DNA from: Heptranchias perlo
Taxonomy: Eukaryota
Direction: 5' to 3'
DNA: 64,000 nucleotides
Assembly (NCBI RefSeq): GCF_035084215.1
Contig: NC_090339.1
Coordinates: forward strand, 29,822,001 to 29,886,000
Part shown: positions 5,644 to 54,234 of the stretch, piece by piece
Position numbering within the stretch: position 1 is the stretch's first letter
Layout of the letters: each line of letters starts with the position of its first letter
The notes under the pieces: generated by a model
What the model saw: the letters and a program-made list of their open reading frames with translations, nothing else
The model's database searches: none
Told to the model about the DNA's origin: nothing
Translations under genes and position numbers: made by a program

Positions 5644-6562
5644 TCATTGCAAATAAGAAGTTAAAGTGGAACTATCCCTAACTTTTTCAATGTTCTCAAC
5701 TGTGTCGATAATAGCTTCTATTTTGTCCTGTTCCAGCACATGTGAAGCATTATTTTTGAATTTGTTGAGCAGTGATTCTCTAGACAGTGGCTTTCTCCAG
5801 TGTCCGTAAAAGGTGTCACATTTTCCACTGAGCACATCTCTGTTCTTCAGGACCAGAACCACCTCTCCGTACATCTTCTCAAAACTGGCCACGTTATCTT
5901 CAGGATGCTGAAGCTCCACTTTGTTGAGTAACTCACTGAGATTATCTCGATGGAGTTTACTTTCACTGAATGATTCAATGCTTACATCTCCATCCAACAG
6001 TGCCGAGCAGGCATTAAACTGGAAGGAATGGCGAGCCTCATGTTCCGTCTCTGGGAATGGCCTGTTGATGTATCGGGAAATGGGGACGCGCAGTATGATT
6101 CTTTCAATCATAGAGGGTGAAAAGACACCCTCATTGGCAGTCACCAGCTGCCTAACTGAGGCAGCAGCGTCTACCACCCAGTGCATGCCCAGATGAGCTG
6201 GGAAGCGCTTAAATGCAATATCTTGGTCCTCTAGCAGAAAACGTGTCTGCTCAAGTGGTGCCAGCTCCTGAGGTTGATAATCACCATAGAAAGCAGCAAA
6301 TCCAAAGCAGCCGGGGGTGTTGTCTAGAATTTTAGCATTTCCCTCCATTCCTTTAGAGGCAAGGAGGGCTGCCTCAAAGCCCAGCCGTGTGGCATTGCCA
6401 ATATGGATGGGTTTTGCCTGAGTAGCTGCATTGGCCATGGGTGCCCCTGAGAGTGAAGCTGCAATAGCCAGGGCATTAATACACTGATTGGGGTTCAGTG
6501 ATAGAAATTTAGCTACGGCTGCAGCGCTGCCCATTGTCCCAACCACACTGGGAGGGTGGAAC
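5644..6562 (-). CDS. ACOD1: ACOD1 last coding exon
   Basis: Lies within ORF 5644..6588. Acceptor tttaacag|G at 6563/6562 completes the Arg codon (PKR|FHPP). Stop at 5644-5646. Confidence 0.95.
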
Positions 6563-9500
6563 CTGTTAAATAAAGAAAATATATTCAAGAATCTGATCCT
6601 TTTACTTGTTTATTACTATTACACAGTAACACTTCAATTCAACAGAATTATCAGTTTTGTTGTGATTAATACTTCTACAAAGTGCTCTTTTACAGGTCAG
6701 ATTCTCTACTAGAGCCTCTAAACGAACTCACTGCCCAGTAATCGGCCATTTACATAAATGCTCTTAAGGAATGGTAATAAAACCTGATACCTTTTTGTGG
6801 GTTGTACCCAGAGGTTAAAATGTTTTCTCTAGATGTTTTATACTGTTTTATTACCCTCTACAACTTTTCATTTACTGATTCATTACACTTTTTATTTTGT
6901 TTATTTTTGCCTACAGTGCAGATAAACTGTGACCCAGCTAAGAATAGTTTTTCACAACCCCCAAATTATAATGTGTTGGACCTTTTCCCATTCACTCCAA
7001 TTGTATAATGTTCTTGTCAAACATAATACTGATTTCTGAGCAATGAAATGAATGAAGTACCAAGGAGTGGCATTGGTGTAAAGATTCAAAAGGGAATTAT
7101 CTAGGTAGAAAAGATATGGAAGTATGTGGTGGGAAAAGATGAGGGGTTAATCTATAAAGAGAGAAGAGGGTAAATTTTGACTTTGTGCAATCGTGTAAAA
7201 CTGGTGATAGTCAATCAGTAGCCTATTTTACATCTCTCCCAATGTTTATTACCATTGACTTCAATGAAAATAAAAATCGGGAGAGATGAAAACCAGGCTG
7301 CCAATCCATTTCACACTATTGCGCACTGAAAATCTGTCTTCTCCTGTCCTAAAAATTCTTATGTTATTATGTTGGTAGATATCAGTAGTTAAGTGTAGGT
7401 TACTGCTTCAAATAATATTAGACAAAACAATAACTTTAATGTAGAATGAGGTCTGACAAAAATCATGTCTATCCTTTCTGTTAATCTGGAGCCAAATGGC
7501 TGCTCCTTTCCCCAACACTAACACTAAAACAATTCTACTCTTTCTGCTGACATTTATCATCGTCGCTGGGTCAAGATCCTGGAACTCCCTTCCTAACAGC
7601 ACAGTGGGAGAACCTTCACCGCATGGGTTGCAGCGGTTCAAGAAGGCGGCTCACCACCACCTTCTCAAGGGCAATTAGGGATGGACAATAAATGCTGGCC
7701 TCGCCAGCGACGCCCACATCCCATGAACGATTAAAAAAACATAAAGCAGTAGCCAAGATCTATATAAAAGGAGGGTAAAGTTGTTCCACGTGCAACAGTA
7801 TTAAAAAGGAGACTCTTTGAACACGTCAAACGACACATTTTGATCTATTCGGCAACAACTTTAGTAATTGCTGCACCGATGTTTGAATTTAGTGCCAGAA
7901 TCTTACCTCTTCGGAATGTTGTTGGCCTCTTGGGAGAAGCGCATTAACCTGCCCTGAATTTCAATGCCCACATTAAAGGCCAGCAGGAAGTCAAGGCCAC
8001 TGGGTTTGGAGTTTGGAGGCAACATCTGGGCAGCAGCTAGAAGGGCAGGCAGCACAGCTCCCGAGGGATGGGTGGCAGGGTGCCAGGTGTCATCGAAATC
8101 CATCGAGTGGACCTGAGGGACAAGAAGGGGCAACACTCAGATTAACTCTATGGAAACAACAAGAAATGGGCAGAAGAGTCCGTTGATATGAGGAGAGTTT
8201 TATCATTAATATTTTTCTGCTACTTGTTTGGTTTGGGAAGCCCAGTTGAAAGACAGTTGGAAGTAGATAGATTGAGTACAAATATCTCACCGCGACTCCA
8301 TTGGCGAAAGCGGCCAGAGTGGGAGAAAGTTTTAATCCATTGCGTCCATACACCGAGCTGACTGGGTCTGGGGCAAACATTTGCTGTTAGAAAAAAGGGG
8401 AACAGGTTAGAAAGGAAGGAACTGGACAGCTTACTTTGAGAAATGGTCTATGCGGAGTCTGTTGGCTGAGACAGTGACTATCACTGGTAGAATACGTGTG
8501 CGAGTGAATATTGCAATCATTGGATTCTGTAGACTGGGGCTGCCAATCCGTGCGCAATTTAGTCTTGTCATTTTGACTTCATGCCCTAGTGTAAAATGGG
8601 CTATAGTGTATCGGCAGCCCATTTTGCAGATTCCACATCACCTGTTTTACACACTCGCACGGTCAAAATTACCCCCTTGGATTTATCCCACAAACTTTGA
8701 GAATCAGCGTGAAACGGTCTCCAAGTTAGATAGTCACTTTTGCATTGATATCACCCAAAACCACAAGCCAGAAATTGTGCTGAGTGGCGTAGCACCTGTC
8801 TCTGCAGCTCCTGCTAATTAAAACAACACATGTATTTTCCGCAGGCTCTGTGGCATTGATTTGCTTGATTTTGAAATTTTGTGAAATTGTGCGCTGTCAA
8901 TTCAAACTCTCAGCAAAGTAAGTTGATTTGCATGGAAATGTCTGTCGGAATGGAAGACACGCCCAGAAAATCTGTCAGGAAGTGATATCACGCCCACAAG
9001 CAGACAAACAGACTTCATTCATTTAAAGTTAGTATTCTGGAAGTCATTGTAAACAAAAATTTTAATTTTTTTTATAAACAGGCAAAGAAATAATTGAATT
9101 AAATTAAAGAGACAGAAGGGAAAAGTAAAAAAAAATACATTTTTTAATTGCTAAAAACTCTTAAAATATGGAGTAATATGAGACTCCACATTTTAAAAAT
9201 TTAATTTTTAGTTATCTGGCAGTCATAAAGAGTTATCGCACTTTTAAAGTTTAATTTAGACCTGGTATCTTCAAGATGGCGTAATTAGTTACGATCCAGC
9301 TGGGCGGATGAGCAAGTTTGAAATGTTTCAGTGATTTCAATGATTGCAACGAGGCGATGGCCCTTTAATTCGCAGCTGTCAAATCGCCTGCCAACCAATA
9401 GGAGCAAGTTCACCTCGCAAATTCGCCTGTGCAAATTCAGGAACTTGCTCCTTCCATTAGCCACTAAAAACGCTGTTGAGCTCCTCCATTACTTCGGGAG

Positions 9501-10920
9501 AAATTTCTGCCCCGTTACATAAAGGCGGGAGTGGCTGTATAAACGCAGCCTAAAATAAATGTATACGATGCAGTGTTGTGTTGAAGCTCTGAGATAGCTG
9601 TTTGTGTGTTTAAAGCGAACTCCTATACTTTCGCTGCATGACGGAAACTGACATATTAATGCAGGAATATCATTGTTACTGATCAATGCAGCAGGAAGTA
9701 TTCGTTCAGCACGGAGTGTTGCGGTGACTATATGTTTGAAATTAGTTCACGTGTACATTACCTGGCAATAATTGAGGCAGATATCAAAAACGTGGCTGGT
9801 GCTGCCCAGGACCCCGACCCCAATGTTATCCAGGATCATGCGTTTACTCCTCTGTAAAACCGTGTCTGAGAGATGATCAGCTTTAACCCCAGAGACAAAT
9901 GAGCCGAAACTGCTTGTCACCGTCTCGTTCAAATCCGGCGCCTCGAAAGCTAACACAGAAAAAATACAGTTGTTGTAAAATTGTGTGTGAGGTGTTCCTT
10001 TGTTAAAATATATTTGGAAGCAGCCAATTTAAACTTAATCAAAAGCAGAATACTGCGGACGCTGGAAATCTGAAATAAAAATAGAAAATGCTGGAGAAGT
10101 TCAGCAAGTCTGAGATTGCTGCCTGACTTGCTGAGCTTCTCCAGCATTTTCTATTTTAATTTAAACTGTTATATTTTCCTCCAGAACGAGTTCTATAAAA
10201 CTGTAACAAAAAACTCTCACTTGGAAATAAAATACATTTCCCCGCCAAAGTGATCATATTTCGGAATTAATAGCTCTCTCATGTTAAAGTTGAAAGGAAA
10301 AGTAACACAAGCCTTTTATTTCTTAGGTTTTGTTACAGACTCCGAGAGATGGACTGAAATAATCAAACCTACAATATCAAACAATCAGCAGCGACTTTAG
10401 TTACTTTATTATCGACCTGCCGCTCTATAACTGTATCTGGAATTTAATTCACAACGAGTACCACTAGTTCTGCTGTTACCACTATTGTTGTATGGTTTGG
10501 ACGGATTTCTGCTCGATTTTTTTCAGTGCATCGTCTTTGAGTTGAAGCGAGCAAAAATACTGAGATTTCACACGGCCCTTCCCACCCTCAGTGTCACATT
10601 TGCACCCTACACCTGACTCCAGAAATGAAGCATACACGCATGGATTATCAGTGAACATTTTATTTTAATTTCGTATCAGATAGAAACCAGGTAGGAGGAT
10701 ATTTACCTTTGCGGGAAATCTTATGGTACAGTCGCTTTCCAACTGTGAAGCAGGACTGGGTTTTCTAAAGAGGAACAGAACGAATCACAGTGTTAGCAAT
10801 TAATCTTGAAAAAATACAATTTTTAAAAAATGTAACTAATAATAAAAAAATACAAATATGGAAAAAGTTAAATTAATTTTTCAAAGCTACATTAATATCT
10901 ACCTGCAGTTTGGAAAACAT
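5644..10920 (-). CDS. ACOD1: Cis-aconitate decarboxylase (IRG1), MmgE/PrpD family; 6 coding exons, ~493 aa
   Basis: Minus-strand exons, all GT-AG and phase-consistent: 10920-10903, 10764-10707, 9949-9762, 8383-8291, 8112-7907, 6562-5644 (1482 nt). The translation contains RSKRMILDNIGVG, AAFANGVAVHSMDFDDTWHPATHPS, PKRFHPPSVVG, QAKPIHIG, AFKRFPAHLGMHW, EARHSFQFNAC and FYGHWRKPL, which are typical of vertebrate ACOD1. Confidence 0.96.
7555..7740 (+). mobile_element. 3' tail of second LINE family (family B) in ACOD1 intron 5
   Basis: SWNSLPNSTVGEPSPHGLQRFKKAAHHHLLKGN* plus gggcaattagggatgg... and an A tail; near-identical to the ends at 16810-17000 and 62150-62339. Confidence 0.9.
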
Positions 10921-11006: not shown

Positions 11007-11136
11007 TATTTATACAGCATCTCGGAGCAAGAGAGCAGCAAACACACGTCAATCACCCCCGCCCCCCCGCAGGGTCAGGATCAGGGTCAGATGTTATTGT
11101 CACCGATTTGCATAATTAGAATCGGTGGGAACTTCC
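11007..11136 (-). promoter_or_regulatory. ACOD1 proximal promoter (TATA, CRE-like half site, GC box, octamer/C-EBP, NF-kB site)
   Basis: TATAAATA on the minus strand at 11007-11014, about 90 bp upstream of the ATG. Also CACGTCA near 11045, CCCCGCCCC near 11057, ATTTGCATAA at 11106-11115 and GGGAACTTCC at 11127-11136. Confidence 0.7.
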
Positions 11137-15269: not shown

Positions 15270-18050
15270 GAAACAAAGATGCCTGAGTTTGCTGGTGATA
15301 TCCAAGTGGAGGGGGCATTGCAAAATACAAAGGATTTGGATAGATTATGAAGTTGGACTGACTGACAAGTGCAGATTTTGTTTAATATGGTTGAATGCAA
15401 GGTGACGAGACTGGGGAGGGGGAATAAGCAGTGGGAGTATAAACTAAATGGTATTACTCTGCAGCACACAGTAGTGGTGAGGGATCTAAGTGTACTAGTG
15501 GATGGCTCACTGAAACCATTAGCACAACAGGCACCAGCAGTTAAAAGAGCAGAATTAGAGAAACAAATAGAATAGGAGAAAATAGAATATGAAAGTAAAC
15601 TAGCAAGAATTATAAAAATGGATTGTAAGAGCATCTACAAGTATGTAAAAAGGAAGAGAGTAGCAAAAATAAACATTGGTCCCTTAGAGGCTGAGACAGG
15701 AGAAATTATAATGGGGAATAACAAAATGGCAGAGACGTTAAACAAATATTTTGTATCTGTCTTCACAGCAGAAGACACAAAAAGCAGATGAAAAATAGGG
15801 GAGAACCAAGGGGCTAATGAGAGTGAGGAACTTAAAATAATTGATATCAGTAGAGAAAAAATACTGGAGAAAATAATGGGAGTAAAAGCTGATAAATCTC
15901 CTGGACCTGATGGGCTACATTCTAGGGTTCTAAAAGAGGTGGCTGCAGAGATAGTGGATTAATTGGTTATGATCTTCCAAAATTCCCTAGATTCTAGAAC
16001 AGTCCCAGTGGATTGGAAGGTAGCAAATGTAACCTCGCTATTTAAGAAAGGAGGGAGAGAGAAAACAGGGAAATGCTGGAATCCATTATTAAGGAAGTAG
16101 TAACAGGGCACTTAGAAAATCATAATATGGTTAGGCAGAGTCAACACGGTTTTATGAAAGGGAAATCATGTTTGACAAATTTATTAGAGTTTTTTGAGGA
16201 TGTAATTAGCAGGGTAGATAAAGGGGAACTATTAGATGTAGTATATTTGGATTTTCAAAAGGCATTCGATAAGGTGCCACATAAAAGGTTGTTATGCAAG
16301 GTAAGGGCTCATGAGGGTAATATATTAGCATGGATAGAGGATTGGTTAATGGACAGAAAACAGAAAGTAGCGATAAAAGTGGCTACGAGAGCAGGTCAGA
16401 GACTGGGTATTCTGCGGCGAGTGACTCACCTCCTGACTCCCCAAAGCCTTTCCACCATCTACAAGGCACAAGTCAGGAGTGTGATGGAATCCTCTCCACT
16501 TGCCTGGATGAGTGCAGCTCCAACAACACTCAAGAAGCTCGACACCATCCAAGATAAAGCAGCCCGCTTGATTGGCACCCCATCCACCACCCTAAACGTT
16601 CACTCCCTTCACCACCGGCGCACTGTGGCTACAGTGTGCACCATCCACAGGATGCACTGCAGCAACTCGCCAAGGCTTCTTCGACAGCACCTCCCAAACC
16701 CGCGACCTCTACCACCTAGAAGGACAAGGGCAGCAGGCGCATGGGAACAACACCACCTGCACGTTCCCCTCCAAGTCACACACCATCCCGACTTGGAAAT
16801 ATATCGCCGTTCCTTCATTGTCGCTGGGTCAAAATCCTGGAACTCCCTTCCTAACAGCACTGTGGGAGAACCGTCACCACACGGACTGCAGCGATTCAAG
16901 AAGGCGGCTCACCACCACCTTCTCAAGGGCAATTAGGGATGGGCAATAAATGCCGGCCTTGCCAGCGACGCCCACATCCCGTGAACGAATAAAAAAAATT
17001 TTAAAAAAAATTTTTTCAGGTTGGCAGGCTGTAACTAGTGGGGTGCCGCAAGGACCGGTGCTTGGGCCTCAGCTATTTACAATCTATATTAACGACTTGG
17101 ATGAAGGGACTGAGTGTAATGTATCCAAGTTTGCTGACGATACAAAGCTAGGTGAGGAGGACACAAAGAGTCTGCAAAGGGATATAGACAGATTAGGTGA
17201 GTGGGCAAGAAGGTGGCAAATGGAATACAATGTGGGGAAATGTGAGGTTATTCACTTTGGTAGGAAGAATAGAAAAGCAGAATATTTTTTAAACAGTGAG
17301 AAACTATTAAATGTTGGTGTTCAGAGAGATTTGGGTGTCCTCATAGAAGAAACACAAAAAGTTAGCATGCAGGTACAGCAAGCAATAAGGAAAGCAAATG
17401 GCATTTTGGCCTTTATTGCAAGGGGGTTGGAATACAAGAGTAAGGAAGTCTTACTACAATTGTACAGGGCTTTGGTGAGACCTCATCCAGAGTACTGTAT
17501 AGAGTTTTGGACTCCTTATCTAAGGAAGGATATACTTGCCTTAAAGGCGGTGCAACGAAGGTTCACTAGATTGATTCCTGGGATGAGAGGGTTGTCCTAT
17601 GCGGAGATGTTGAGTAGAATGCGCCTAAACGCTCTAGAGTTTAGAAGAATGAGAGGTGATCACATTGAAACATACACGATTCTGAGGGGGGCTTGACAGG
17701 GTAGATGCTGAGTGGTTGTTTCCCATGGCTGAAGAGTCTAGAACCAGGGGTCACAGTCTGAGGATAAGGGGTCAGCTATTTATGACTGAGATGAGGAGGA
17801 ATTTCTTCACGCAAATGGTTGTGAATCTTTAGAATTCTCTACCCCAGAGGGCTGTGGATGCTGAGTCATTGAATACGTTCAAGGCTGAGGTAGATAGATT
17901 TTTGGACTCTAGGGAAATCAAGGGATATGGGGATCCGGCAGGAAAGTGGAGTCGAGGTTGAAGATCAGCCATGTTCTTATTGAATGGCGGAGCAGGCTCG
18001 AAAGTTTGTATGGCTTACCACTGCTCCTATTTCTAATGTTTCTTATGTTA
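15270..18050 (+). mobile_element. CR1-type LINE(s), decayed, interrupted by a family-B LINE
   Basis: RT motifs in ORF 16073.. (SQHGFMKGKSCLTNL, YLDFQKAFDKVPH) and ORF 16950..17696 (GVPQGPVLGP, FADDTK). Typical CR1 3' UTR ends at about 18050. Confidence 0.92.
16379..17010 (+). mobile_element. 5'-truncated family-B LINE nested in CR1
   Basis: VATRAGQRLGILRRVTHLLTPQSLSTIYKAQVRS... through to the A tail. It splits the host between RKQKVAI and FSGWQAVTSGVPQG. Confidence 0.9.
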
Positions 18051-18604
18051 CTTATTCTATAAAGGGGGAGTGAATTCTAATAAATTGTCACATATTGCTG
18101 GTTGCTGTAAGGGGACAATCTGTATAGATATGTATGTCTCTCGTTAGCCCTCGTGTTCCTATGGAATTGGTCTGATGCTCAACTCCACTGACATCACAGA
18201 ATGCAAAACTTCTCACAGCCTGCTATCACCGTACCAGGATATCACTGGAGCAGAACGTATTGATTCATGATGTGCGATGATTCTGCAAAGTGTTTGCATT
18301 TTTATATGTACATGTTCTATTTCAAAATGCAAATCATTACTAACAAATAGATTGTAATTGAAACAGGAAAACTGGCAAATATTGAACAATTACAGTCAAA
18401 AGTTGAACATTTAAAAAAAATATATTATCGACAGAAGGGGGAAGTTGTACACCATTTTCTACATTGATATAGTTTGTGATATATACATTCAGCAAGGTAT
18501 TTCCCAGACACCACATAGACAGCATAGTTTTGCATATTTATAGGGTGATTTAAGATCTTCAGGACAAGGGTGGACATGGGATGGGGCTGGCACAGCCGGA
18601 AGGC

Positions 18605-20195
18605 AGAGTCTCAGCAAAGGAAGATGCAGTTGAGATACTGGATGGGCTAAACATTTATAGAGGAGGGACTAGAAAGGCTTGCTGTACTTAAAGTAGGTAA
18701 GTCACCTGCTCCAGATGGGATGCATCCTAGGTTGCTGAGGGAAGTAAGGGTGGAAATTGCGGAGGTACTGCCCACAATCTTCCAAATATCCTTAGATACG
18801 GGGGTGGTTCCAGAGGACTGGAGAATTGTAAATGTTACACCCTTGTTCAAAAAAGGGTGTAAGGATAAACCCAGCAACTACAGGTGAGTCATTTTAGCCT
18901 CGGTGGTGGGGAACCTATTAGAAACGATAATCCGGGACAGAATTAACAGTCACTTGGACGAGTGTGGATTGATTAGGGATAGCCGGTACGGATTTGTTAA
19001 AGGCAAATCGTATTTAATCAAATTGATAGAGTTTTTTGATAAGGTAACAGAGGGTCGATGCGGGCAATGCAGTTGATGTGGTGTATATGGACTTTCAAAA
19101 GGCGTTTGATAAATAGTCTTGTCATCAAGATTAAAGCCCATGGAATAAAAGGGGCAGTAGCAGCATGGATACAGAATTGGCTAAGTGACAAGAAACAGAG
19201 AGTAGTGGTAAACGGTTGTTTTTCGGACTGGAGGGAGGTGTACAGTGGTGTTCCCCAGGGGTTGGTACTAGGAACACTGCTTTTCTTGATATATATTAAT
19301 GACTTGGGTGTACAGGGCACAATTTCAAAATTTGCAGATGACACAAAACCTGGAAGTGTGGTGAGCAATCAGGAGGATACTGATAGACTCCAAGAGGATA
19401 TAGACAGGCTGGTGGCATGGGTGGACACGTGGCAGATGAAATTTAATGCAGAAAAATGCGAAGTGATACATTTTGGTAGGAAGAATGAGGAGAGGCACTA
19501 TAAACTAAAGGGCACAATTCTAAAAGGGGTGCAGGAACAGAGAGATCTGGGGGTATATGTACACATAGTGGCAGTGGCAGGGCAGGTTGAGAAAACAGTT
19601 AAAAAAGCATACGGGATCCTGGGCTTTATAAATAGGAGCATGGAGTACAAAAGCAAAGAAGTCATGATGAACCTTTATAAAACACTGGTTTGGCCACAAC
19701 CGGAGTATTGTGTCCAGTTCTGGGCACCACACTTTAGAAAAGATGTGAAGGCCCTAGAGAGGGTGCAGAAGAGATTTACTAGAATGATTTCAGGGATGAG
19801 GGACTTTAGTTACGTGGATAGACTGGAGAGGTTGGGGTTGTTCGCCTTGGAACAGAGACAGTTGAGAGGAGATTTGATAGAGGTATTCAAAATCATGAAG
19901 GATGTAGACAGAGTAGATAGAGAGAAACTGTTCCCATTGGCGGAAGGGTCAAGAACCAGAGGACATAGATTTAAGGTGATTGGCAAAAGAACTCTATGTA
20001 CGAGCAATCCAGCCAGTCCCACTGCCCTGCCCTATCCCCGTAGCCCTGCAAATGTTTTCCTTTCAAGTCCTTATCCAGTTCCCTTTTGAAAGCCACGATT
20101 GAATCTGCCTCCACCACCCCCTCTGGCAGTGTACATAGAGCCGGCACGGACTCGATGGGACAAATGGCCTCCTTCCGTGCTGTAACCTTTCTATG
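18605..20195 (+). mobile_element. CR1-type LINE with inverted 3' segment
   Basis: ORF 19058..20089 (GVPQGLVLG, FADDTK, EYCVQFWAP). Segment 19992-20131 is CR1 3' sequence in reverse orientation. Confidence 0.92.
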
Positions 20196-21664
20196 AAGGG
20201 GTACACAGGGGCAGTTCCATCTTTGCTAGGGCTGCTTTTGAGTTGGTTCACTCTTTCTACTTAGCTGAGGACCAACATTAATTTGCTGTCATTGCTATCA
20301 ACCTAACCCTCCCTTCTGCAGGGAGGTGTTGTGAGACTTGGGAAGGGAATTATTGCACAGACCTGCAAGAGGTGGGTCCAGACTAATATTTTCCCAGTTT
20401 CAGGCAGATGCCATACATCACGTGCTGTGACTAACATATGTTTTACAGATACTTATTGAACATGCTTGTGGTGAGGGTTCACCATAGTGGGTTGGGGGGG
20501 GGCGGTGGGGAAGTTGGAGAGTTAATGACTACACATTTGCTGCTAGCACTTAAAATTATGGTAATCTGTACTTCTCAAATGGACCTAGCATCTCTGGGGA
20601 CAGGCCTAGCAGAGGGTGGGGTGAGTGTGAGGGGACGCTAAGGCTGGCACCCCAGATCACTTTGAAAAATGGTTTTGGAGGTTGGGCTAGAAGATATATA
20701 TAATGCGCCCCTCCAGTCATATCCTCTCCAGCAGTCATCCAACGGTGAGGGGCAGAACAAATGAAGCTTATGTGGGGTATCTCTCTCTCTTATTTAGCCT
20801 TGTATTCTCCTATCTGTTCTATCTTGTTCCTCCCGAGCTTTCGAAACGGCCATGCTACACATTGTTCTTGCTCCGTGAATCCTCACTCATTGTATTGCAG
20901 TCAAGAGCCATACTACAGTCTCTAACTAAATTCATGCTTCCAAGGACCTCAAAAATCGTGGGACTCCTTAATTTTCCTCATGTCGTGTCATTGGCAAACG
21001 TTTAGTATTACCTAACCACTATTTCTTGATTTACTTTCCTAGTCTTCTGTATCTTGTAGGTACCTTGGGTTCTCAATAATACAAATATCATGTATATGTA
21101 TTATGTAGCAATATACTCCCCGCTGATGAAAAAAGTTAGATGAAACATTTTCTATTGTCTTGTAAACAATATTTTAATACGGTTTCTGAACGAATTAAGG
21201 CGGGAAACAAACTGTTGGATTACTCGTGATCCTGACTATAGCAACAGCATCATTCCGCTTTGTTTATGGAATTCACCCTGCCGCAGACTCCACACATTTT
21301 CAAAGTTTAAAATAGCGACTTTCAGATTATTTTAATCCCGTAGAGGAGCAAATATAGCCTTAATTTTAAGATTTTAAAATATGGTATACCCGTGAATAAG
21401 ATTCAAAAACAAATGAAAAATGATAACTCAAAGAATTGCAGTGAAAATATTTTTCCCTTATTCCAATTTTCTGGGCTGCCTTTTTGATGATGTTATTAAT
21501 TCTTGTAATTTGCAACAATCTCGCACATAAAGCATGACGAATAAGGAAGCTGGCTGTAAGAGCTCGTAAGGTGTAAAACATGTTGTCTGTGAAAATACAC
21601 CAGGAGGTGATCACATTATGGAATTCAATCCCTGCTATTTCCTCCTCCTATGCTCAGCTGACAG

Positions 21665-21736
21665 TATAAAGCTGGGAGCCGCGAAGGTTTAAAATAACAG
21701 CGAGGAAGGTGCTCTCCACGGACACTACATGTAAGC
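21665..21736 (+). promoter_or_regulatory. Putative TATA box and short non-coding first exon of the SatP-YrdC gene
   Basis: TATAAA at 21665-21670 is followed by a short CpG-containing stretch ending in a strong donor (CAT|gtaagc at 21731). The ATG exon at 25993 begins with an acceptor, so an upstream exon is needed. Confidence 0.5.
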
Positions 21737-22899
21737 AGCCGTAACATTTCATTGTACAGTGCATTCGATTAGATGATGCTATTTGTTAATATAGAAACAG
21801 CCCAGGGGTCCAAAAATCTAGAGCAAAGGTTATATCGTTTAAAATTAAGATAATTTAATACATTTATAATCATTGGCTTCGATATCCAAATATTTCTCCA
21901 GAGGGGAAGTAAACTGAAATATCGGTCGAACATGGGCGTATGAAGACAGCTAAAATTGGTTAGATACCTTGATTTTAATTGTGCAATATTAACATAATCC
22001 GATTTAATAAATGCGTTTATGATAATATACTCAGATAACTTTTTCGTTCTAAAATATTTGTGGATCAGATCCAATAAGGACTGACGAATGATATTTTAAC
22101 AATTTCAGGGAAAAGATTAAATAAAACAAATTTCATGTTTCTACTAATATATGGGACTAATTTCCGGTTGTAAAACAAGCGTTAACACAGTTCTGAAAGC
22201 AAGTGGAGCAAATCACTTTCAGAGACCATTACTGTCAATCGGTGATGTGGTGCCTGGTACAATGACACTATTTCAAACTAGGTTCTCTGGACTCCCCCGA
22301 TTCCGCAAGAATGAGTCCTAGACATTGTCAGATTTCTGAACTTTTCTGGAAACACTCAGCCGTTCAGGCAGCATCTATCCTAGCCCTCCCTACCTTCTCT
22401 CCACAGATGCTGCCTGACCTGCAGAGCGTTTACAGCATTTTCTGTTTTTATTTCAGATTTCCAGCAGCTGCAGTAATTTTCTGAATTGTTCTGATTTCTT
22501 GATAGCATGTTATTGCTGTTGCAATGTGCTAATAAAACGTTTTATGCAATTATTGCACTGTTTTCCTTTGGTTGCTGGTCTTGTTTTTGGGAAGATAGGG
22601 ATGGGGATCCCCAGCAATATCATGCAGAAAAGTTTAAAAACCTGTGTGGATATTGTACTTTCTTCATTACCCGTAGATGGCGCCACCTTCATAAGGCTAG
22701 ATCCATGGAGACACCTGCAGGATTTCAATTGGTGCTAAATTCACTCTCATTGAACCCTCCAGTTACTGAATCGCCTTTGAAAATTTTAAAAGAGTCATTA
22801 TTTGTGTAATGCAGTGCTGCTTAGATTGATTATGATTAAAATCGAATGTAGAGTACATTGAACTAAATTGTTCCAATTAGTACTAATAGCAGAATATTC

Positions 22900-25070: not shown

Positions 25071-26003
25071 CCTCTGGCAGAGACCAAGGAGGGGTGAGCG
25101 GGATGGGTAGGAGCTTGGTGAGGTCAGCCCCCAGTGGAAAAAAACTCAACGAGAGAGGAGGATAGGGCAGATGTGGGTGCTACTCATAAGGAAAGGAATG
25201 GGTGCATCGATGGGCTCTTTAGAGAATGCCATGAGAGGCACAGAGTGTGGCTGTGGGTTTATTCAAGGAGGAATCAAGTCTTCGATGACGGCAGGAAAGT
25301 AGGAAGGCGGAGGAGAAGTGATTGGTTGAAGTAGGAATTAGGGGGCAAAGTAACCAAGGGGGAGAAATGAAAGGTCACGTGACAGATTGACAGGAAGGGG
25401 AGGAGACAGAAGAGAAGGGATGGATAAGGGCAAAGAGAAAAAAGAAAAGGAGACAGAAGTATAGGGCTCAGGTCTGGAGCAGTGGCCAAAATGCACACAC
25501 AATTGATTCACAGTTTTGTATTTTGCTGTAGTGAGAATATTGTACTTGTTAAAACAAGTTAAAGCAATTTTAAATCACTTTCATGAGATAACATGTGTTC
25601 AGGAAAATTCACAGGCCCACACATCACCAAATGCTGCTAAACTTGCAGAAGCATGCCTGATCATTAAAGGGTGCTACTGTTCTGTTCGATACTATATCTA
25701 TGTTCCTACATGTTACTGTGTTTACATTTATATGTTACTGTGGCTAAGTTTAATGTTATGATATATAATACATTTATATAGTATCTCCACATCAAGCATT
25801 TCTATGGTATATTTTTCTAAACCATAGGTAATTTTTAATTGTATGATGTATTTTGTCATGAAAGAAGATGTCAAGATCTTGATATGCTTTGTGTTTCATT
25901 CATAAATACATTCTTCATAGATTTAAAGGCAATGTCTAGTTCTTGATGTGCATGTTGCTTAATTCATATATTTCTTTATTCATTTATTCTAGATTTAAAG
26001 GCA

Positions 26004-29000
26004 ATGTCTAGCTCGGAAGGTTTTGCTGCTATATTTTATAGCGAGCCAGGAGTTCTAGGGCTCCTGGCCAATGTGATCAGTGCCTTCCTTGTGGCTCTGC
26101 AGAATTTTGCTCAAGCCAATACAAATATTTTGGCTAATGGAACTGAAAACATCTTGGCAGGTGAGTAACAGCATGACAATGTGCTGTAGCTATAGTTAGT
26201 GATCTGCTCAGTGATAAGGACAACAATATAAAATATCATCTTATTTTGCTTAGACAGCAATAGTGACTGAATTTCAATGATATGAAAAGCTTTGAGATGT
26301 TTTGTTGTAATAATATTACTCAGGAAAAATGGTTTAGGATGATAGGATTTCATAACTCTGATATGAAATATTATGTTTTGTAAATAAAACAAACAAAATA
26401 TGAGCAATTATTATTCCATACTTTGTACTAGAAAGCAGATTAATGGGATCTATTAGAGGGAAAATAAAGATGGATTTAAAAAAATGTGTCATTCAAATAT
26501 TCATTTCAGATTGCAAAGGTGCTATGTAACTAAAGGGAAGATTAGTACATCATTTGCAATAAACAATATTCCTAGAACTACAATATCTGTTTTGCTGATC
26601 TAAAAGTGCTTTATAGTACACTCATTAGGGACAAATTTCTGCAGGAGTTCACTCGATTGTAACTTTGGTTGAAGAGCCGCAGAAACCCCTGAAAAATGGA
26701 AGAAATGCTGTTTACGCGTTTTTCTGGAGTTTCTACAGCTTTTCTGCTGAAGTCATGGTGGACGATCAGGAGAACCCCACAGACATTCACCCCCATTAAC
26801 TGTTAGCTCCCCTATAGTTTAGTGGATTACAGAATGTGCTCTAAAGTAACAATGGAAAAGGTCATCTTGATTAATATTCAGGGTATTAACTACCTTCTAT
26901 TTTAGAAGGGTGTCTATATTCAGGCTCTTGACATTGAAAATAGGGATTGGTTTATACGTTACTATACTTTAACATCACTGCAAAGCAGTATACACTTCAC
27001 AATAACACTAAAGTTGTCAGGACCTGATCTGACCCCTGAAATAAGCAATGTGGGACTCTGGAGAAAGCAGTCTCATATCACTCCCGTTTGACATTGAATG
27101 GGATATAATTCCAGTGCAGTGTCAAACTTGCTCCAAAGTTCCTTGGACCTCCTGCACACTTTATAAACTGACCCAAAGCTAACTTTAATGTTTAGAGAGT
27201 ATAAGCACACCCACATGCTCTCCCTAACTATTTATATTCCATGCGGTGTCAAATCCCAGCACTGTGAGACTGTCTCCTCCAATGATTGTCACACTTTTTC
27301 CCTTTGGGGTCAGTCAGGATCTGACTCCAGAGTTAGGCTGCAACTTTAGAGTTGTTACAAAGCAGAAAGCTCTTCTCAACAAAGCTAAAATTGTAGTATT
27401 AACAAATGCTAAGGAGATTTTGAATGAGGGATCCTTTTTTGAAAGGGCCGCTGATCCTGAGACCCCCCTTTTAAGTTATGCATTTAAACCTTACTTAAAG
27501 TTTATGGCGCTCATGAAGACCATATATTTGAATACCCAGTATAAGAAGTTTTTTGAAGGAACCTATGCTATTAAAGAATTTCCATTGTGTGTTTTCTAGG
27601 TGTTCACCTTATATTGATTGGTGGAGTGACACAACTTGTTGCTGGGCTAATGGCGTTCAGAAAGTACGACCATCTTGGTGGCACAGCCTTTATAGCTTTC
27701 TCAGCTTTGTGGAGCAGCTTTGGGGCAACTCGAATTATTCTGGGAGCAAACTCCCCTCTTAATGCCAGCTCCATCACTCTGTATCCAAAAAACACCAGTG
27801 TTGTAAATAATATTACAAGCACGGCTCTGCCTCCTATTAATGAGTCTGCTGTTGCAGGGCTAGTAGCTTACATCAGTGTAGCATTTATTTTGTCCTTCTG
27901 TTCAGCTACCACTAATTACATCATGCCCTTTGTGTTTGGGGCCATAACACTTACACTCGTTTTTGAGGCTGTAGGTCTCTTTAGCCAATGGGCTTTAATA
28001 GTATCTGGAATCTTTGAACTAGTGATAGTTATCTTTGGGCTTTATGGAGCCACTGCCCTGCTTTTAAAGGGAGTCACCCAGAGATACATCCTTCCTGGGT
28101 TTGGCAATGCATTATTCAATGTACTGCTTCTAGGAACAACTAACAAATCATCTTCTAAGAGCATTGGTGAAGAGAAGAAGAAGAACACCAAATATGCTGA
28201 GCCTATGGCCCTTGGCAACTTGTGCAGTGTGATTTCTCCCTTCATCTTTGCTTTTTACTGCTTTGGGTACATGAAATCCTTTTATGTGGGAGCTGTGTGG
28301 GTCAGCATCAATTCTATTGCACAACTTTTTGCCAGCTATTACGGTTACTTGCGCAATGATGTCTACTTTGCCACTAAATTTGGTGTCCATAGTATGTATT
28401 GGCTTGTGAAGTCCTGGGAAGAGTTCATTTTGACTGTCCTCATAAATGTTGATATTTTAGATAGCAGCAGAGCAAGGATGACAGGTGACTGGTTTTTCTT
28501 GGTCACAGCTTTGATTTTATGTCTGATGTCACTGAATAGAGACAAACTTGAAATAATCCATAATGGCTTTTTTGTTCTTCTCACCATCTCCACCATTCCT
28601 CAGATCAACAGTGTACCATATTACAGATTTTTTGGGGCAGTTTGCTCTATGTACACAGCCCTATCCCTTTATGTAACATTTGCCAGCCTAATCAACTCCA
28701 TAGCAGAAAAGGCATTGATTCCTATTGGAACCCAACTCCTCTCTTCAAAAACATTTCAGAATGTTCTATTTGCCCTGAAAAAAAAGTTCACCACAGCTGA
28801 AGAGCTTCCATCCTTTACTACTGTGCAGCTTCCAGATGCCCTCTTCTACATCTGCAATGGACTGGCAGCCCTGTCTGCCATCCAGAGTGCAAATTTAGAC
28901 CAGGTCCAAATTCATGTCACTATTCCCTGGGTGCTGATTCCTGGAGCTCTCATCCAACTTTATGTGTCCAGGATTCAAGTCCGAGGAGGAAGGCGCTTTG

Positions 29001-32000
29001 GCTCTGTGTTAACCTTCTGCTATGCAGCTTTATGGGCGACTTGGACCTGGCTTCGATTTGCAGGTATATTTATCAATGCAATATTACCATGAACAAACAA
29101 TCGCTAAAGATGATTTATATGTGTATGAACAACAAATGAAAATATTTTCGTATCTCACTTTGTAACTGGGATTTTAGTGTATATGTAATTTTTATTGATT
29201 TTCTGTATTTTCTAAAAATTATATTTCTTTAATCTGCACATTTTTAAATTAAAACAATTCAGATTATTCTTTATTACTAGGAGTGTCCCCAGTCAATCTC
29301 CCTAATGCAAAAATGGCCATTTTTACAAAAATAATCCTGTATTATTAAAATAATAGATGGTCAAGGGAATGAGCTATAGGCATGTATGCACTCCCCATTC
29401 ACTTGGGGCTTAAATTTACACTTGTGATTATACCAACCTCACAGTCACAGATTTGTCTATTATTTATTTCGACACGTCATAGTTCCAGTTTATAAAAAAA
29501 ACTCACACAACAGAAACAATGGAATACCATACGGCTATAAAATATGTTACTGTATGCTATTCAGATTAGCAAAACAGATTTTATTTTTCTCAGTTCTGAT
29601 ATAATAAGATAACACATTAAGGATACATAGACAACACCTAAGATCATGTCACTATTCCCTGTGTGCTGATCTCTGACTTTATGTGTTCAGGATTCAAGTA
29701 CAAGAAGGAAGGTGCTTTGGTATTGTACTATTATTCTGCTACACAGCTATCTGAATGAGCACTACTTTCTTTATCCTGCTAATGACTGTGAGTAATGTTA
29801 TGAATGCTTAACAACTTATACATTATGTTTCTCTTCACTACTTTAACAGAGGCATCAACTCATGTTAACATGGGTTAACACCTCTGCTAAAATAACAAAG
29901 AAAGGAAGTTATTATATGTGTATTAAAATTTCACACAAAAGCATCTCTCACAGTAAGTTCCAAGCTTATATCAATTCTCAGTGATACACATAGACCTGAA
30001 ATTTCCTTAAGAGCTTTCCTTGCCACCATATCTTCACTGGCAATTCCCAGCCATAATTTCCTGTTTCAAGTTAGTCTTTGTATTGTCAATAGTATTATCT
30101 GCTTATATTCATAACTGTGTGTAATGAGTTTCATAAATATGTATTTCTTCTGCAGGTCATTTGTTAAATATTGATCCCAGTTCTGATGGTGGATTCACTG
30201 TGGGTGCCATAGCTTTCCTTATAGTCAACATGTTTCTTATTATCTTAGGTGAGTGTTTTAGTTGCAATTTCTGCTCAGTTTGTGTACTTCAATACCTGCC
30301 GTCCAGGGGGAATTCATTTCTTGTGTGGTCTCTCTCACAGCCACTTATATTAATATAGTGCTGCTCACAGTCACAGTCATCATGGAAGTGATAATCATCT
30401 GTTTTCTACTCTTCACCCTTGAGAGACTACCTCTTCCTTTGGAAGGTCAGTCACTAGCTCAATTTATTTTTAATTTTTAAAAAATGTCTATTTTATCGGC
30501 ACGTGAACACTAAGGACTATTTCCCCCTACTGTTAACCCCACAGGTGTGATGCTGGCTTTGTTCAGTCTTTTCTGTGTTTATGGAGCAGTTGCCTCTTTT
30601 GCCAACCATATGTTTGGGAAACAACTAATTCCTCTGGGTGACCCTCTCTTCAAGGTAAATGCTTAATGGTATCTATTTACTTCTAATATTAATTGTTTTC
30701 CAATGTATTGCACACTGGGAGTCAAGGCTAAGTTTAGTCTTCAGGTGAAGTGGGATTACAGGGCTGAGGATAATTGGACAAGGGCGTGGAGATTCAGTCC
30801 CTATCTTAAAGTCATACATCTGTTCTTATTTTTATATATTTCAATTTTATATTATTATTTGTATTTAATTAACAAAACTTACTACAGTTTGGGAAGCAAA
30901 AAAGTGAAGTTGGTTGGAGCATAGGAGGTTCTATGCAGTACAAGCTAAGGAACTGGGAGACACAGTGCCACCACTGGCAGGAGGGCATGATTACAGTGTG
31001 ACAAGTTTACACAGGCAGTTTCCATTATAAATGTGGCCAATGAAACTTAGAATGAAACAAGCTGACAGGATGTGTACACAGTAGTAGGTACAGCACAGGA
31101 GGAAGCCATTCGGCCCATCATGCCTGTGCCAGCTCTTTGAAAGAGCTATCCAATTAGTCCCACTCCCCTGCTCTTTCCCCATAGTCCTGTAAATATTTTT
31201 CCTTCAATTATTTATCCAATTCTCTTTCGAAAGTTACTATTGAATCTGCTTCCACCATCCTTTCAGGCAGTGCATTAATAATATAAATGTGCAGGAATTT
31301 TGTAAGAAGCAAAATATTCTCTTCCTTTAATGTGGTAAGCTGACATACTTTGTTTCCCAGTAAAATTTGCTGGTCTACCATCATTAATTTGTTTTGAAAA
31401 AAAAATGTCTTTTGTAATGTGAGGTCTAACAGTGAAAGAATGCCAACATTATGCATTATTTTACATATAGGTTTTGACAGAATCCATTACACTTCAGAAG
31501 TCACACTTCAATATGTCAACAATATTTCATGCTGATTTTTTCCTTACCTAGAACTGGAAATTTTGCAAGCATCTACAACTTTGCAAACTTCCATCATCAA
31601 ACAGCAATTAAACACTGATTGAACTATTTACTTAGAGTAGCTAACTGTTGTGACCTTGAATGGGGGGCACTTAAACACAGCTCTATTCTATCAGCAGAGT
31701 AATACATTGTGTATTGCATGGTATAATGCTCCTGTCATTATGGAACAGCCTATCATCTGAGTTTCTGTGAGCAACACCACAAGAAACCCACTAGTTAAGG
31801 ATTAAACTACCTAGGATCATGATCATGGATTTAACATTCTTGATAGTTTATAAACTGCTAAAACGTACTGTTTATGGTTTGGGATGTCATCCAAACTCCC
31901 ACAGCTTTCTAATGCTCCATCAATTTTCTGCTATTTTTTGTTATTTACAAATGTCTTGCCCATTCATTAAAGAAAGGATGGTGTACAAAAGTTGTGCTCA

Positions 32001-33876
32001 TTTATGTAATTGCAAACAATATTTAAGCCTGTTTCATGAACAGAAAAAACTATATAAAACATTCTGACTATAATCTACATTGTCCTGTAACATACCTTTT
32101 ATTTGGCTTCTGAAGACTGCAATCTAGACCTTCTGTGTCGATTAATTTTGGAAAAACCTAAAGGATATTTTCATTATGATACGTTTATCAAAAACAAAAT
32201 ATTTTTCTGAAATGCCTTATACTTTTTTTTCATAAATCACAGCCAGGAAAAAACAAAAAGAAAGACCAAACCTCTTCGTCTTGTCACATTGCTTCTTCAC
32301 GTCAGACTAGCAGTCTACAAACTATTGCAAAGATCTTGGATTCTGGCCGTGTGTGTGGGATCCCAACTGATACTGTGTATGCTCTGGCAGCTTCCTGTAA
32401 GCAGCCACAGGCTGTTGAAAGTATCTACAACATAAAGGTAAGGATGCTAAAATCAGTGAGACAAAAATATGCTCAGACTGGATTCTTACAGCTTTTTATT
32501 CTTACCCAGTAAAATCATTAGCCACAAAGTGCTTTTCTCAGTCTTTTAACGCATGATTGCTGTGTTTGCTTTTCCAGGAGCGTCCTGCAGAGAAGCCTAT
32601 CTGTATATGTATTTCCAATCTGGACCAGCTTTCTGCTGTGCATCCTCCATTCAGCCCCTTGCTCTGGGAGTTCATGAACCATGTCTACCCTGGAGGGATC
32701 AGCTGTATTGTGAAGAAAGGAGAATGGCTAAAGAAACTAGGTATGTATTGTGATTGGTAGATCATTTTGAAGCAGGTGGTGGTCCCTATTCAAACAGCCA
32801 GTTACATCAGTTAATCAGTGTTAATCAGAGTGAGATTAGATTCTAAGAAAGTTCTGAAAATCAGATTGTATCCTTTATTAAAGGTGTTGGCGCTGCCTAT
32901 GATCGTGTTGGTACAAAGGACAGTATCATGATCCGTGTTCCTGACCACACTGTGACAGCCCATCTTGTGAATATGACTGGGCCACTCGCCATTACGTCAG
33001 CGAACCCGAGCGGAGAGCCTGATAGCACCCACCATGACATGGTTATCTCGTATGTATTTAAATATTACAATTGAATTAATTGTTGTTTTACCTTATAGTA
33101 CATGCATTTTTCATTGTAAGTGTTATCGTGTTTATCGACAGGCGTCTTGCACACAAGATTGATGGTGTTCTATGTGATGGAAACTCTAATGAATTGGTTG
33201 CTTCCACTGTTATCAACTGTACTAAGATTGATGAAGGTACTACAGCATTCTGTTCAAATATATTAATTATATACTCTTTTGGTTACTGATTAAACAGATT
33301 TTATCCAATAACTTTTACATTGTTTTAGCCCCTAAGGTGAGCCCCTATGTGTGAGTTTCTTTAAATTATATATTAGTTTTAATATGCTAACATAATCATA
33401 GTTGAGGTAGGAGAAGGAGTTGCAGTTGGACTGGCAGCACACATAGCAGTCTCATTCAGTGCTGAGTAATTTTCTGACATAGCATTTGTTACATTGATGA
33501 ATGTACTATTAACACTTGGGCAGATCAGCCCAATGCAACTCATGTTGACACCTGTGAGGTTCATAGAGGACGTACAATTGTAAACTGATTTTTCCAATAA
33601 CTTTGGCATTGGCGTAGCCCCCAAGGTTTACATATGAATGAGTTTTTTAAAAATAAGATGCTAGTATTAAAATTACTTTTTTCAATGATTCACTGCTTTT
33701 AATGCTTTCTAAAGACCACTTCAGCAGTAATTGTAATGGTCTTCAGCTGTGATTAATATTTTTCTAATAAAAATGATTTACTTTCTACAGAAGGAATCAC
33801 CATTATTAGAGAAGGCTGTGTCCCAGCAGTGAGGGTCATGCAGCTTTTTGAACGAGTGAAGAACAAACTTGACTGA
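26004..33876 (+). CDS. Uncharacterised polytopic membrane protein: 3x GPR1/FUN34/YaaH (SatP/AceTr)-like repeats plus C-terminal YrdC/Sua5 domain; 10 coding exons, ~877 aa
   Basis: Coding exons, GT-AG and phase-consistent, 2634 nt with no stops: 26004-26160, 27600-29063, 30156-30248, 30341-30445, 30545-30654, 32243-32437, 32578-32740, 32884-33049, 33142-33236, 33791-33876. SatP-like motifs: SEPGVLGL, GGVTQLVAGLMAFRKYDHLGGTAFIAFSALW, NHMFGKQLIPLG. YrdC motifs: GIPTDTVYAL, KERPAEKP, IRVPDH, TSANPSG, ASTVI, IIREG. Confidence 0.9.
27600..29063 (+). CDS. Large 1464-bp exon encoding most of the membrane region of the SatP-YrdC protein
   Basis: Lies within the strongly hydrophobic 501-aa ORF 27587..29092. 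Acceptor ttttctag|GT at 27599/27600; donor GCAG|gtatat at 29063. Confidence 0.92.
31085..31275 (-). mobile_element. CR1 3' end fragment (intronic)
   Basis: NALPERMVEADSIVTFERELDK plus CR1 3' UTR. Confidence 0.85.
32243..33876 (+). CDS. YrdC/Sua5 (TsaC-like) domain exons of the fusion protein
   Basis: Five exons translate to ...ILDSGRVCGIPTDTVYALAAS...IYNIKERPAEKPICIC...VYPGGISCIV...DSIMIRVPDH...GPLAITSANPSGEP...IDGVLCDG...ASTVINCT...ITIIREGCVP...stop. Confidence 0.9.
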
Positions 33877-53400: not shown

Positions 53401-54234
53401 ACATGCGTGCAGTCAATGGCACCCTTAACCATGGGGAAGCCTGCAATGCGAGCAAACCCTCGTGCTCCCTCGTTCAGCTTGTCTCTATCAAGAGGGTAAC
53501 GTGATGAGCCTGTTCCACATATCGTATAGTGCGTCATTGACCTCCTTTATGCAGCAGTGCACTGCAAACTGCGAGATGTTGCACAGATCGCAAGCAGAGG
53601 CCTGAAAGGATCCAGAGCCGTAGAAGTTCAGTGCTGCGATTACCTTCACAGCGACAGGCAATGCTGTCCTTGCCCTGCTCTGAGGCTGTAGTTGTGGCCG
53701 CAGCAGTTGACAGGTCTCCATCACGACCTCCTTGGTGAACCTCAGCCGTCGGATGCACTGATCCTCACTCATGTTGAGGTAAAATAATTGGTCCCTGAAG
53801 GTCCTAATGGGGATATGGCCTCCTGCTCAATGCCCTGCGCCTCCTCCCTCTCCTCGCAGCTTGACCTGCTCTGCGTGGCCTCTCTGCATGTTCCCTGTCA
53901 TGTTCAATGCCCAGTGGAGGCCCCATCCAGTGACATAACCATGATGCTACCCTGCAATCGCATGGTTACCAAGAATCTTGTTTAATTACTGTTGTAACTT
54001 TTCCAACCTTAAGGCAGTACCTGCCAAACCACTCTCAAATGGAATTCTCAGTAAGTATAGGGAGCTTCAAAAAACACTTCCTGTTCGACCAGAAGCAATA
54101 ATCCAGCAACTAACCTGTAACACCTGCATGATCCCTTTAAATAGCGCTGGGGGGGTTGTCCAGGCACTCTAAGACATGTTCAGGTGTGTGTGGTTAAGGC
54201 AGTGCATTGAGTGGAGTGTTAAGTTCCAAATTGG

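Follow-up and report, generated by a model that had tools for sequence, protein, structure and literature searches.

A shark gene joining three AceTr/SatP repeats to a Sua5/YrdC domain, and its IRG1L neighbour

Why would a vertebrate carry three SatP-like channel units and a TsaC-type enzyme in one polypeptide, and why next to a gene for itaconate synthesis? The question is raised by a stretch of 64,000 nucleotides of the shark Heptranchias perlo (assembly GCF_035084215.1, contig NC_090339.1, 29,822,001 to 29,886,000, forward strand), called the window here and numbered from its first letter. Analysis of the window revealed a fusion gene of 10 coding exons (26004-33876, plus strand), whose 877-amino-acid product, with zero internal stops, consists of three AceTr/SatP repeats and a C-terminal Sua5/YrdC (TsaC-type) domain. 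It lies head-to-head with IRG1L, which is found 15 kb upstream. The explanation we put first, tentatively and at somewhat less than an even chance, is an inducible carboxylate channel-enzyme of innate-immune metabolism, with itaconate or a related acid as its cargo.

Gene structure and membrane repeats

All nine splice joints of the fusion gene, including the joint between membrane and enzyme parts (30652->32241), are present on a single 3231-base contig from a probable RNA run, and this last joint was found in four of four runs from two samples. These runs are presumed to be RNA (they carry no RNA annotation); the evidence they give is the spliced joints, their depth being uninformative on expression level. 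The landmark peptides of the repeats are joined in frame across GT-AG introns. A preliminary description of this DNA had proposed three tandem SatP/AceTr-like repeats from nine such peptides, and with four introns removed all nine stand in one frame, each in its described place. It had also ended the reading frame at 30654, where in fact five further exons follow and encode the Sua5/YrdC domain. Over its full length the protein shows 90% identity to annotated shark proteins, and the gene is the shark orthologue of zebrafish si:ch211-153b23.3, a name that NCBI gives to several relatives. The spliced contig has 24 additional 5' bases, and the depth of 5.22 in bin 21314-21827 equals 111.7 x 24/514; we infer a joint between a candidate non-coding first exon and coding exon 1 (Table 1). 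At the other end, contigs of the 3' untranslated region reach ~35800. Skipping of exon 4 would preserve the frame, but was rejected as the contigs include this exon.

The repeats are not all ~210 amino acids long, as first described, but measure about 215, 185 and 181. Comparison of each repeat with Pfam bore out the family assignment: repeat 1 matched PF01184 with E 7e-6 and the first half of repeat 3 with E 0.008. Repeat 2, which had no Pfam match, aligned over its whole length to E. coli SatP (5ZUG) with E 0.0028, or 5.7e-10 by profile. Pairwise similarity against 300 shuffles gave z 6.3 for repeats 1 and 2 (0/300 as high), 3.8 for repeats 1 and 3 (1/300) and 7.4 for repeats 2 and 3 (0/300), and profile-profile comparison among the repeats gave 97.9-98.3%. 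Full-length alignment to a profile of 17 single-domain AceTr proteins, a biased set since it was drawn from family-profile matches, gave 99.5%, 98.7% and 97.6% for repeats 1, 2 and 3; two family fragments (P0298, P0283) had been removed from an earlier set of 19, whose column-shuffled controls scored below 0.4%.

An AlphaFold model of the Heterodontus orthologue (90% identical), built from a 110-sequence alignment with pLDDT 81, consists of three sets of six long helices (residues 15-214, 255-421 and 465-630) and a linker helix, in agreement with the ~18 transmembrane helices (3x6) expected at the outset. It superseded a 26-sequence model (pLDDT 59) that gave no Foldseek match at E<=0.001. Foldseek aligned the newer model to SatP with template-modelling scores of 0.77-0.83 by target length. 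The best SatP match in VIA-align was repeat 1 (Z 21.4, rmsd 2.8 A); the SatP fold of repeats 2 and 3 rests on profile and helix count. A search of the ESM Atlas returned AceTr clusters only, all below 0.9. A 3x6-helix AceTr architecture of the membrane part is supported by this model. The earlier judgement that repeat 1 is the closest to canonical is supported as well, by the top single-domain profile score and the best SatP structure match. Of the linkers, called lysine-rich before, linker 1 deserves the name (mean net charge +3.8 in 26 orthologues) and linker 2 does not, being an amphipathic helix with three lysines.

Table 1. Features of the window, with positions counted from its first letter (TM, transmembrane helix; aa, amino acids).
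Feature	Position	Strand	Remarks
Candidate non-coding exon 1 of fusion gene	21690..21729 (start approximate)	+	TATA-like word at 21664; donor-like site after 21729
Coding exon 1	25993..26160	+	ATG at 26004; aa 1-52; TM1 of repeat 1 with gate residue Asn23; contig piece 25993-26158, GT..AG joint
Coding exon 2	27600..29063	+	aa 53-540; remainder of repeat 1 (to ~28108), linker 1, repeat 2 (~28181-28735), linker helix, first half of repeat 3 (from ~28820)
Coding exon 3	30156..30248	+	Repeat 3, TM4; contig joints
Coding exon 4	30341..30445	+	Repeat 3, TM5; contig joints
Coding exon 5	30545..30654	+	Repeat 3, TM6; contig joints
Coding exon 6	32243..32437	+	Linker and start of Sua5/YrdC (PTDTVY motif, Lys708); PF01300 E 1.6e-8
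Coding exon 7	32578..32740	+	YrdC, Arg710, Lys714; PF01300 E 6e-5
Coding exon 8	32884..33049	+	YrdC, Arg780, Thr800-Ser801-x-Asn803; PF01300 E 2e-8
Coding exon 9	33142..33236	+	YrdC, Ser839; contig joints
Coding exon 10	33791..33876	+	YrdC, Arg855/856, stop; acceptor set by contig joint
IRG1L (cis-aconitate decarboxylase-like)	5644..10920	-	493 aa; six coding exons 10903-10920, 10707-10764, 9762-9949, 8291-8383, 7907-8112, 5644-6562
IRG1L upstream region	11007..11136	-	TATA (11014), C/EBP-like (11108) and kappaB-like (11127) words; consensus matches

Two partial copies were seen in the gene region. Intron 2 contains a decayed stretch (29640-29772) that repeats the 3' end of exon 2 at 56% amino-acid identity, and the acceptor of coding exon 1, together with its start context, has a short second copy at 25917-25950, ~70 bases upstream of the one used. 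The window as a whole is intron-rich vertebrate DNA, with copies of long interspersed nuclear elements (LINEs) and reverse transcriptase among the elements at 15300-20100, 45800-47500, 50800-54000, 54900-57300 and 61300-62400; further elements in those stretches are, we assume, a Harbinger-like pair of decayed frames and Penelope-like GIY-YIG elements.

Pore, gate and catalytic residues

SatP residues were mapped onto the repeats by alignment to the E. coli protein, and their conservation was counted over 26 vertebrate orthologues. The equivalents of Gln50 and Trp76, on the acetate path of SatP, are invariant in all three repeats (26/26). At the gate, Phe17 of SatP corresponds to Asn23 in repeat 1, Ser262 in repeat 2 (Asp in 20/26) and Asn472 in repeat 3; among 110 aligned rows, Asn23 occurs in 93 (15 gaps), position 262 is Asp in 74, Asn in 11 and Ser in nine, and Asn472 occurs in 97. 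The same position in the 17 single-domain proteins is Phe (12), Leu (four) or Met (one). Tyr72 is represented by Phe or Tyr in repeat 1, His in repeat 2 and Tyr in repeat 3, and Leu131 by Ile in repeat 1, the register being unsure in the other two. The canonical NPAPLGL motif and the F-L-Y constriction are intact in no repeat of the shark fusion, and each repeat has an invariant Glu in TM5 across the 26 vertebrates.

Asn, Asp and Asn in place of Phe17 would make wider, more polar pores that might pass a dicarboxylate such as itaconate or succinate. This specificity is predicted from yeast Ato1, where, in the accessible text of PMC8379382, F98A (equivalent to F17) gained succinate transport and Y155A abolished activity. 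Degenerate pores that merely anchor or oligomerise the enzyme, beside an IRG1L gene linked by inherited synteny without common function, make a highly improbable account. In its favour, no repeat keeps the canonical gate, long branches lead to repeats 2 and 3, and regulatory reasons can preserve microsynteny; against it, pore-lining positions are invariant in all three repeats of the 26 vertebrates, and the adjacency of the two genes, their shared duplication, their co-variation and their common loss in therians, described below, point one way.

Sequons for N-glycosylation occur in the outer loop between TM3 and TM4 of repeat 1 in 26/26 orthologues, and the inter-repeat linkers are net positive (26 orthologues); these two features suggest, from sequence, placement in a secretory-pathway membrane with the enzyme domain in the cytosol. 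In the carboxylate channel-enzyme that we prefer, the three AceTr/SatP units, folded as predicted, would make up one half of a ring like that of SatP. The ring would sit in the plasma membrane or an endo-lysosomal one, a location to which the glycosylation-site-rich outer loop points, and dimerisation may complete it with six pores.

The domain after the 18 helices is of the Sua5/YrdC (TsaC-type) family without the SUA5 domain. As a whole it matched TIGR00057 with 129.8 bits (cut-off 123.2) and Sua5/TsaC structures with Z 20. It is the best-conserved part of the protein (88/210 columns invariant): K708, R710, S801, N803, T687, R780, S839 and R855/856 are invariant in 26/26 vertebrates, and T685 is Thr or Ser. 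A separate gene on C29, 37% identical to the fusion enzyme domain in one exon, is presumably the vertebrate housekeeping YRDC. The residues required for catalysis are described as K56xR58, S143xN145, T33, S181 and R195 in the accessible parts of PMC10321239 and PMC6004061; the KxR/SxN tetrad and the T33, S181 and R195 equivalents are all present, with a TsaC-type Thr signature. The Sua5-specific His67, which contacts the Thr hydroxyl, is replaced by Cys, Phe or Thr in the fusion family.

In a channel-enzyme this cytosolic domain would probably convert ATP, CO2 and an amino acid to an N-carboxy-aminoacyl adenylate, serving as a transport-coupled step or switch and not the routine N6-threonylcarbamoyladenosine (t6A) modification of tRNA. 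Conversely, the domain could be a second, inducible threonylcarbamoyl-AMP (TC-AMP) synthase for tRNA t6A, its pores feeding bicarbonate, threonine or carboxylates. The complete TsaC signature including Thr800, the database name threonylcarbamoyl-AMP synthase and the import-assimilation coupling suggested in part of PMC13316224 agree with such a role, which we nevertheless think very unlikely in view of the separate housekeeping-type YRDC gene, the missing fusion in therians, the long-stemmed clade that the domain forms by itself and the IRG1L linkage, which it leaves unexplained.

The IRG1L neighbour and the wider cluster

IRG1L has a basic N-terminus resembling a mitochondrial targeting sequence, its exon 6 matches 'immunoresponsive gene 1, like' of Heptranchias perlo at 100% identity, and it matches ACOD1 structures with E 1e-105. 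The TATA, C/EBP-like and kappaB-like words upstream of it have chance expectations of 0.18, 0.11 and 0.13 per 300 bp (window-wide counts). A bidirectional promoter common to both genes was considered and rejected, the two starts lying ~10.7 kb apart with LINE copies between them.

Of the 40 species with a scaffold length in both match lists, 31 have the same one for fusion and IRG1L, including contigs of 26 kb and 91 kb. The two genes carry consecutive accessions or locus tags in Mobula hypostoma, Callorhinchus, Rhineura, Conger (GenBank) and Prochilodus and interleaved ones in Heterodontus, whereas the numbers are 101 apart in Hypanus, 19 in Danionella and 84 in Hymenochirus; the adjacency is kept from chimaera to squamates. 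The preprint on the pIRG1/IRG1L locus (bioRxiv 10.1101/2022.06.17.496652) describes, in the text available, synteny of pIRG1/IRG1L with VOC, YrdC, 2Fe(ii) oxygenase and GAT genes from oyster to vertebrates, with IRG1L lost in therians and cartilaginous fish having IRG1L only. In that text the neighbour is called only 'YrdC', and the triple channel is unmentioned. Both IRG1L and the fusion are reported absent from therians (bioRxiv 10.1101/2022.06.17.496652; PMC13316224, accessible parts).

Published zebrafish data add co-variation. In the accessible part of PMC11140123, irg1l, si:ch211-153b23.3 and si:ch211-153b23.5 are three of five hubs in one module. Table rows of PMC8877790 gave r 0.88 between si:ch211-153b23.3 and irg1l over 18 conditions; sult5a1, b23.4, si:ch211-207n23.2, b23.3 and b23.5 were the top five by irg1l co-variation among 27 selected genes, a ranking that is not genome-wide. 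For larvae infected with Shigella, the text available of PMC6980646 places irg1l, b23.4 ('YrdC-like') and b23.5 in the top 50 changed genes and does not name b23.3.

Analysis of the surrounding genome revealed the duplication, as one block, of IRG1L and the fusion together with a GLOD5-like gene and one for a PhyH dioxygenase, with a second IRG1L (98%) and a broken channel-gene copy 130 kb upstream. A glyoxalase-domain exon continues each unit, 7.4 kb past the window end and, in the copy, at C15:29,745,398 (C15 being the contig of the window), and exons of PhyH-type dioxygenase follow. The best solved relatives of the GLOD5-like VOC exon are human GLOD5 and Salmonella STM3117; the latter belongs to the itaconate response operon and is described in the accessible text as a methylglyoxal-detoxifying glyoxalase (bioRxiv 648865, 2025.06.20.660670). 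A GATD3/ElbB-like gene lies ~250 kb downstream, facing a second, ancient fusion paralogue of an older clade, whose enzyme exons are 70-87% identical to amphioxus. With it, all four neighbour types named in the accessible IRG1 preprint are present near the fusion. Pfam scans of the 3.2-Gb genome, insensitive to short exons, gave no DJ-1/PfpI or 2OG-FeII match and one unlinked Glyoxalase match. They were replaced by an exon scan that covered 150 of 264 candidates, 100 of which were compared with Pfam, and the VOC and PhyH exon evidence is partial. A separate exon scan of the rest of the 64-kb window found no further cluster genes. The locus thus described has the conserved linkage of non-homologous enzymes and a transporter that marks a metabolic gene cluster.

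Several details of this region may be recorded. In the duplicate block (C15:29698805-29765000; L123, L124, L155, L156) an intact-looking IRG1L is followed by glyoxalase and PhyH exons, and the channel-gene copy has frameshifts and stops, its enzyme exons not being found there. The second 3xAceTr-YrdC gene (L121:1697-8660, L149:579-1313; C15:30.106-30.131 Mb) is ~25% identical in its membrane part, which has no Pfam match, and stands head-to-head with the GATD3/ElbB-like gene. An isolated IRG1L exon copy (93%) lies 1.5 Mb upstream (C15:28217361-28217570). Exocyst Sec3-like exons (L164-L166) flank the cluster upstream and Sushi/HYR/DUF4174 exons (L151-L153) downstream.

The same neighbours admit a reading as a biosynthetic cluster, in which IRG1L, YrdC, the GLOD5-like VOC, PhyH and GATD3-like proteins make a new defence metabolite, such as an amino acid or itaconate converted to a carbamoyl, ureido or oxazolidinone derivative, and the pores import its precursor or export the product. 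All four neighbour types and the joint duplication of four genes fit it, as does contig L050 (297-4930), where an IRG1-like gene with extra introns is followed ~1.4 kb on, on the same strand, by a stand-alone family YrdC without a membrane part. YrdC folds activate carbamoyl groups in TobZ, GdmN, NovN and HypF, TC-AMP is described in the passages available as unstable and cyclising to an oxazolidinone, and His67, the Thr-hydroxyl contact, is replaced. We consider this account possible but doubtful, given that IRG1L alone makes itaconate in vitro (bioRxiv 10.1101/2022.06.17.496652, accessible text), the GATD3-like gene is ~250 kb off, the compartments would differ and the VOC and PhyH evidence is partial. 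Its boldest form, equally doubtful, would make the fusion the transporter-adenylase core of an animal innate-immune cluster. Retained in lineages from molluscs to monotremes but lost in therians, the cluster would synthesise an undescribed defence metabolite and export it, a tRNA-modification fold having been redeployed for small-molecule chemistry at the mouth of a three-pore channel.

The neighbours might instead shield IRG1L-expressing cells from itaconate and carbonyl stress, with YrdC as an ATP or amino-acid sensor gating the pores. Two glyoxalase-like proteins beside an acid-export channel, the VOC exon nearest to GLOD5 and STM3117, the match of the GAT gene to glyoxalase ElbB and the description of matrix IRG1L as costly to the host (bioRxiv 10.1101/2022.06.17.496652, text available) fit such self-protection. 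It appears improbable to us: a full catalytic set conserved to molluscs fits an enzyme better than a sensor, STM3117 is reported in the accessible text to be dispensable for itaconate degradation, and the match to it is one 33-amino-acid exon.

For the inducible carboxylate channel-enzyme that we prefer, the fusion, kept beside mitochondrial IRG1L and induced with it, would most likely move the IRG1L product. A number of observations weigh against it. IRG1L is described as a matrix enzyme, whereas the fusion looks secretory-pathway, and 'no obvious functional clustering' is stated for IRG1 loci in the accessible preprint text (bioRxiv 10.1101/2022.06.17.496652). Nine of the 40 species have differing scaffold lengths for the two genes (several visibly from other assemblies), the IRG1 neighbour is absent beside non-animal fusions on contigs of up to 17 kb, and the YrdC part stands alone or doubled in several snails, so the fusion can do without IRG1. 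A kappaB or C/EBP word was not found in 21400-21740 upstream of the fusion gene. In the zebrafish rows available, sult5a1 (r 0.91) and si:ch211-207n23.2 (r 0.90), outside the cluster name series, co-vary with irg1l too, and the co-variation may be merely a common inflammatory programme. As for the pores, Tyr72 is Phe or Tyr in repeat 1 and His in repeat 2, and Ato1 Y155A is dead (PMC8379382, accessible text); Asp in the gate of repeat 2 could repel anions.

The cluster context gives this orphan family a testable job: in fish, amphibians, reptiles, birds and molluscs it may carry itaconate or related acids across membranes. It also raises the possibility that animals keep an operon-like immune metabolic cluster that was lost with IRG1L in placental and marsupial mammals.

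Ancestry and comparison with known systems

Relatives of the fusion gene among the matches listed (120 of 265) are from sharks, rays, chimaera, coelacanth, lungfish, ray-finned fish, amphibians, turtles, lizards, birds and platypus, with no therian names among them or among the rows listed from a second match list. A profile search of 1.84 billion representatives gave 92 matches. Named fused forms outside the vertebrates are from amphioxus, scallop, oyster, pearl oyster, a snail, a chiton and the diatom Cyclotella, whose record could be contamination. Eukaryotic metagenome contigs (L001-L013) carry the same fusion, nearly intronless and in some cases with an extra C-terminal tail, next to ERCC1, a dehydrogenase or a kinase. 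Two of them (L001:256-3567, L002:123-3290) hold single-exon fusions of 1056-1104 amino acids, the tail of which has no Pfam match and is, we assume, GAF-like. The snail proteins P0121 and P0122 (Littorina, Batillaria) have two tandem family YrdC domains and no membrane part.

In the enzyme-domain tree (58 rows, midpoint root, housekeeping YRDC left out) the family is one clade (100/100, stem 1.37) separate from the bacterial rows; vertebrates group with amphioxus and molluscs (98/97), and a second clade contains amphioxus, chiton and snail proteins. In a repeat tree made by a quick method, the repeats group by position (repeat 1, 92; repeat 2, 86; repeat 3 split in two), with three label changes, the minimum, and long branches for repeats 2 and 3. 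A search for a bacterial donor operon with two short patterns gave 51 GTDB loci, all <=31% identical, without a PrpD/SatP tblastn match in their flanks. The horizontal origin raised in the preliminary description is, in recent form, not supported: amphioxus, molluscs and a diatom record have the triple too, position in the chain determines how the repeats cluster, and for the enzyme domain no close bacterial relative turned up. We read the trees as one old triplication with vertical descent and an early duplication, rather than recent bacterial transfer.

The architecture itself has been reported. Ghasemi et al. (iScience 2026, PMC13316224) described in silico, in the text available, three Gpr1/Fun34/YaaH domains with a C-terminal Sua5/YciO/YrdC domain in vertebrate proteins of ~900 amino acids, and proposed, again in silico only, that two protomers form a six-domain ring. 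The triple-domain-plus-YrdC design and the pseudo-hexamer idea are already published, and this gene adds a shark member; a dimer or pseudo-hexamer of its product is plausible. No paper linking the channel fusion to IRG1L was found among the matches listed from the open-licence PMC and bioRxiv literature (20 of 598 in one case), nor were the polar gates or the wider taxonomic range.

The closest known proteins are these vertebrate Ato proteins of PMC13316224, and the shark gene has their architecture, three AceTr units and YrdC in one transcript for ~870-900 amino acids. The accessible main text of that article does not mention IRG1, itacon-, synten-, diatom or platypus, and its section on the fusion does not discuss vertebrate gate residues. 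It describes the fusion as present 'except mammals', yet platypus has it, and it suggests transfer to protostomes, whereas the tree here fits vertical descent with an old duplication. With SatP/YaaH (E. coli 5ZUG, C. koseri 5YS3) and yeast Ato1/Ady2 the fusion shares the six-helix unit fold, Gln50, Trp76 and a ring-compatible architecture; it differs in having three units per chain, Asn/Asp for Phe17, EP/PD variants of NPAPLGL, the TM5 Glu, a loop predicted to be glycosylated and a fused enzyme. With the TsaC/YrdC/Sua5 threonylcarbamoyl-AMP synthases it shares the fold (Z 20), all required residues and the TsaC-type Thr signature; unlike them, it is a membrane-tethered paralogue in a eukaryotic clade of its own, coexisting with a separate housekeeping-type gene and dispensable in therians.

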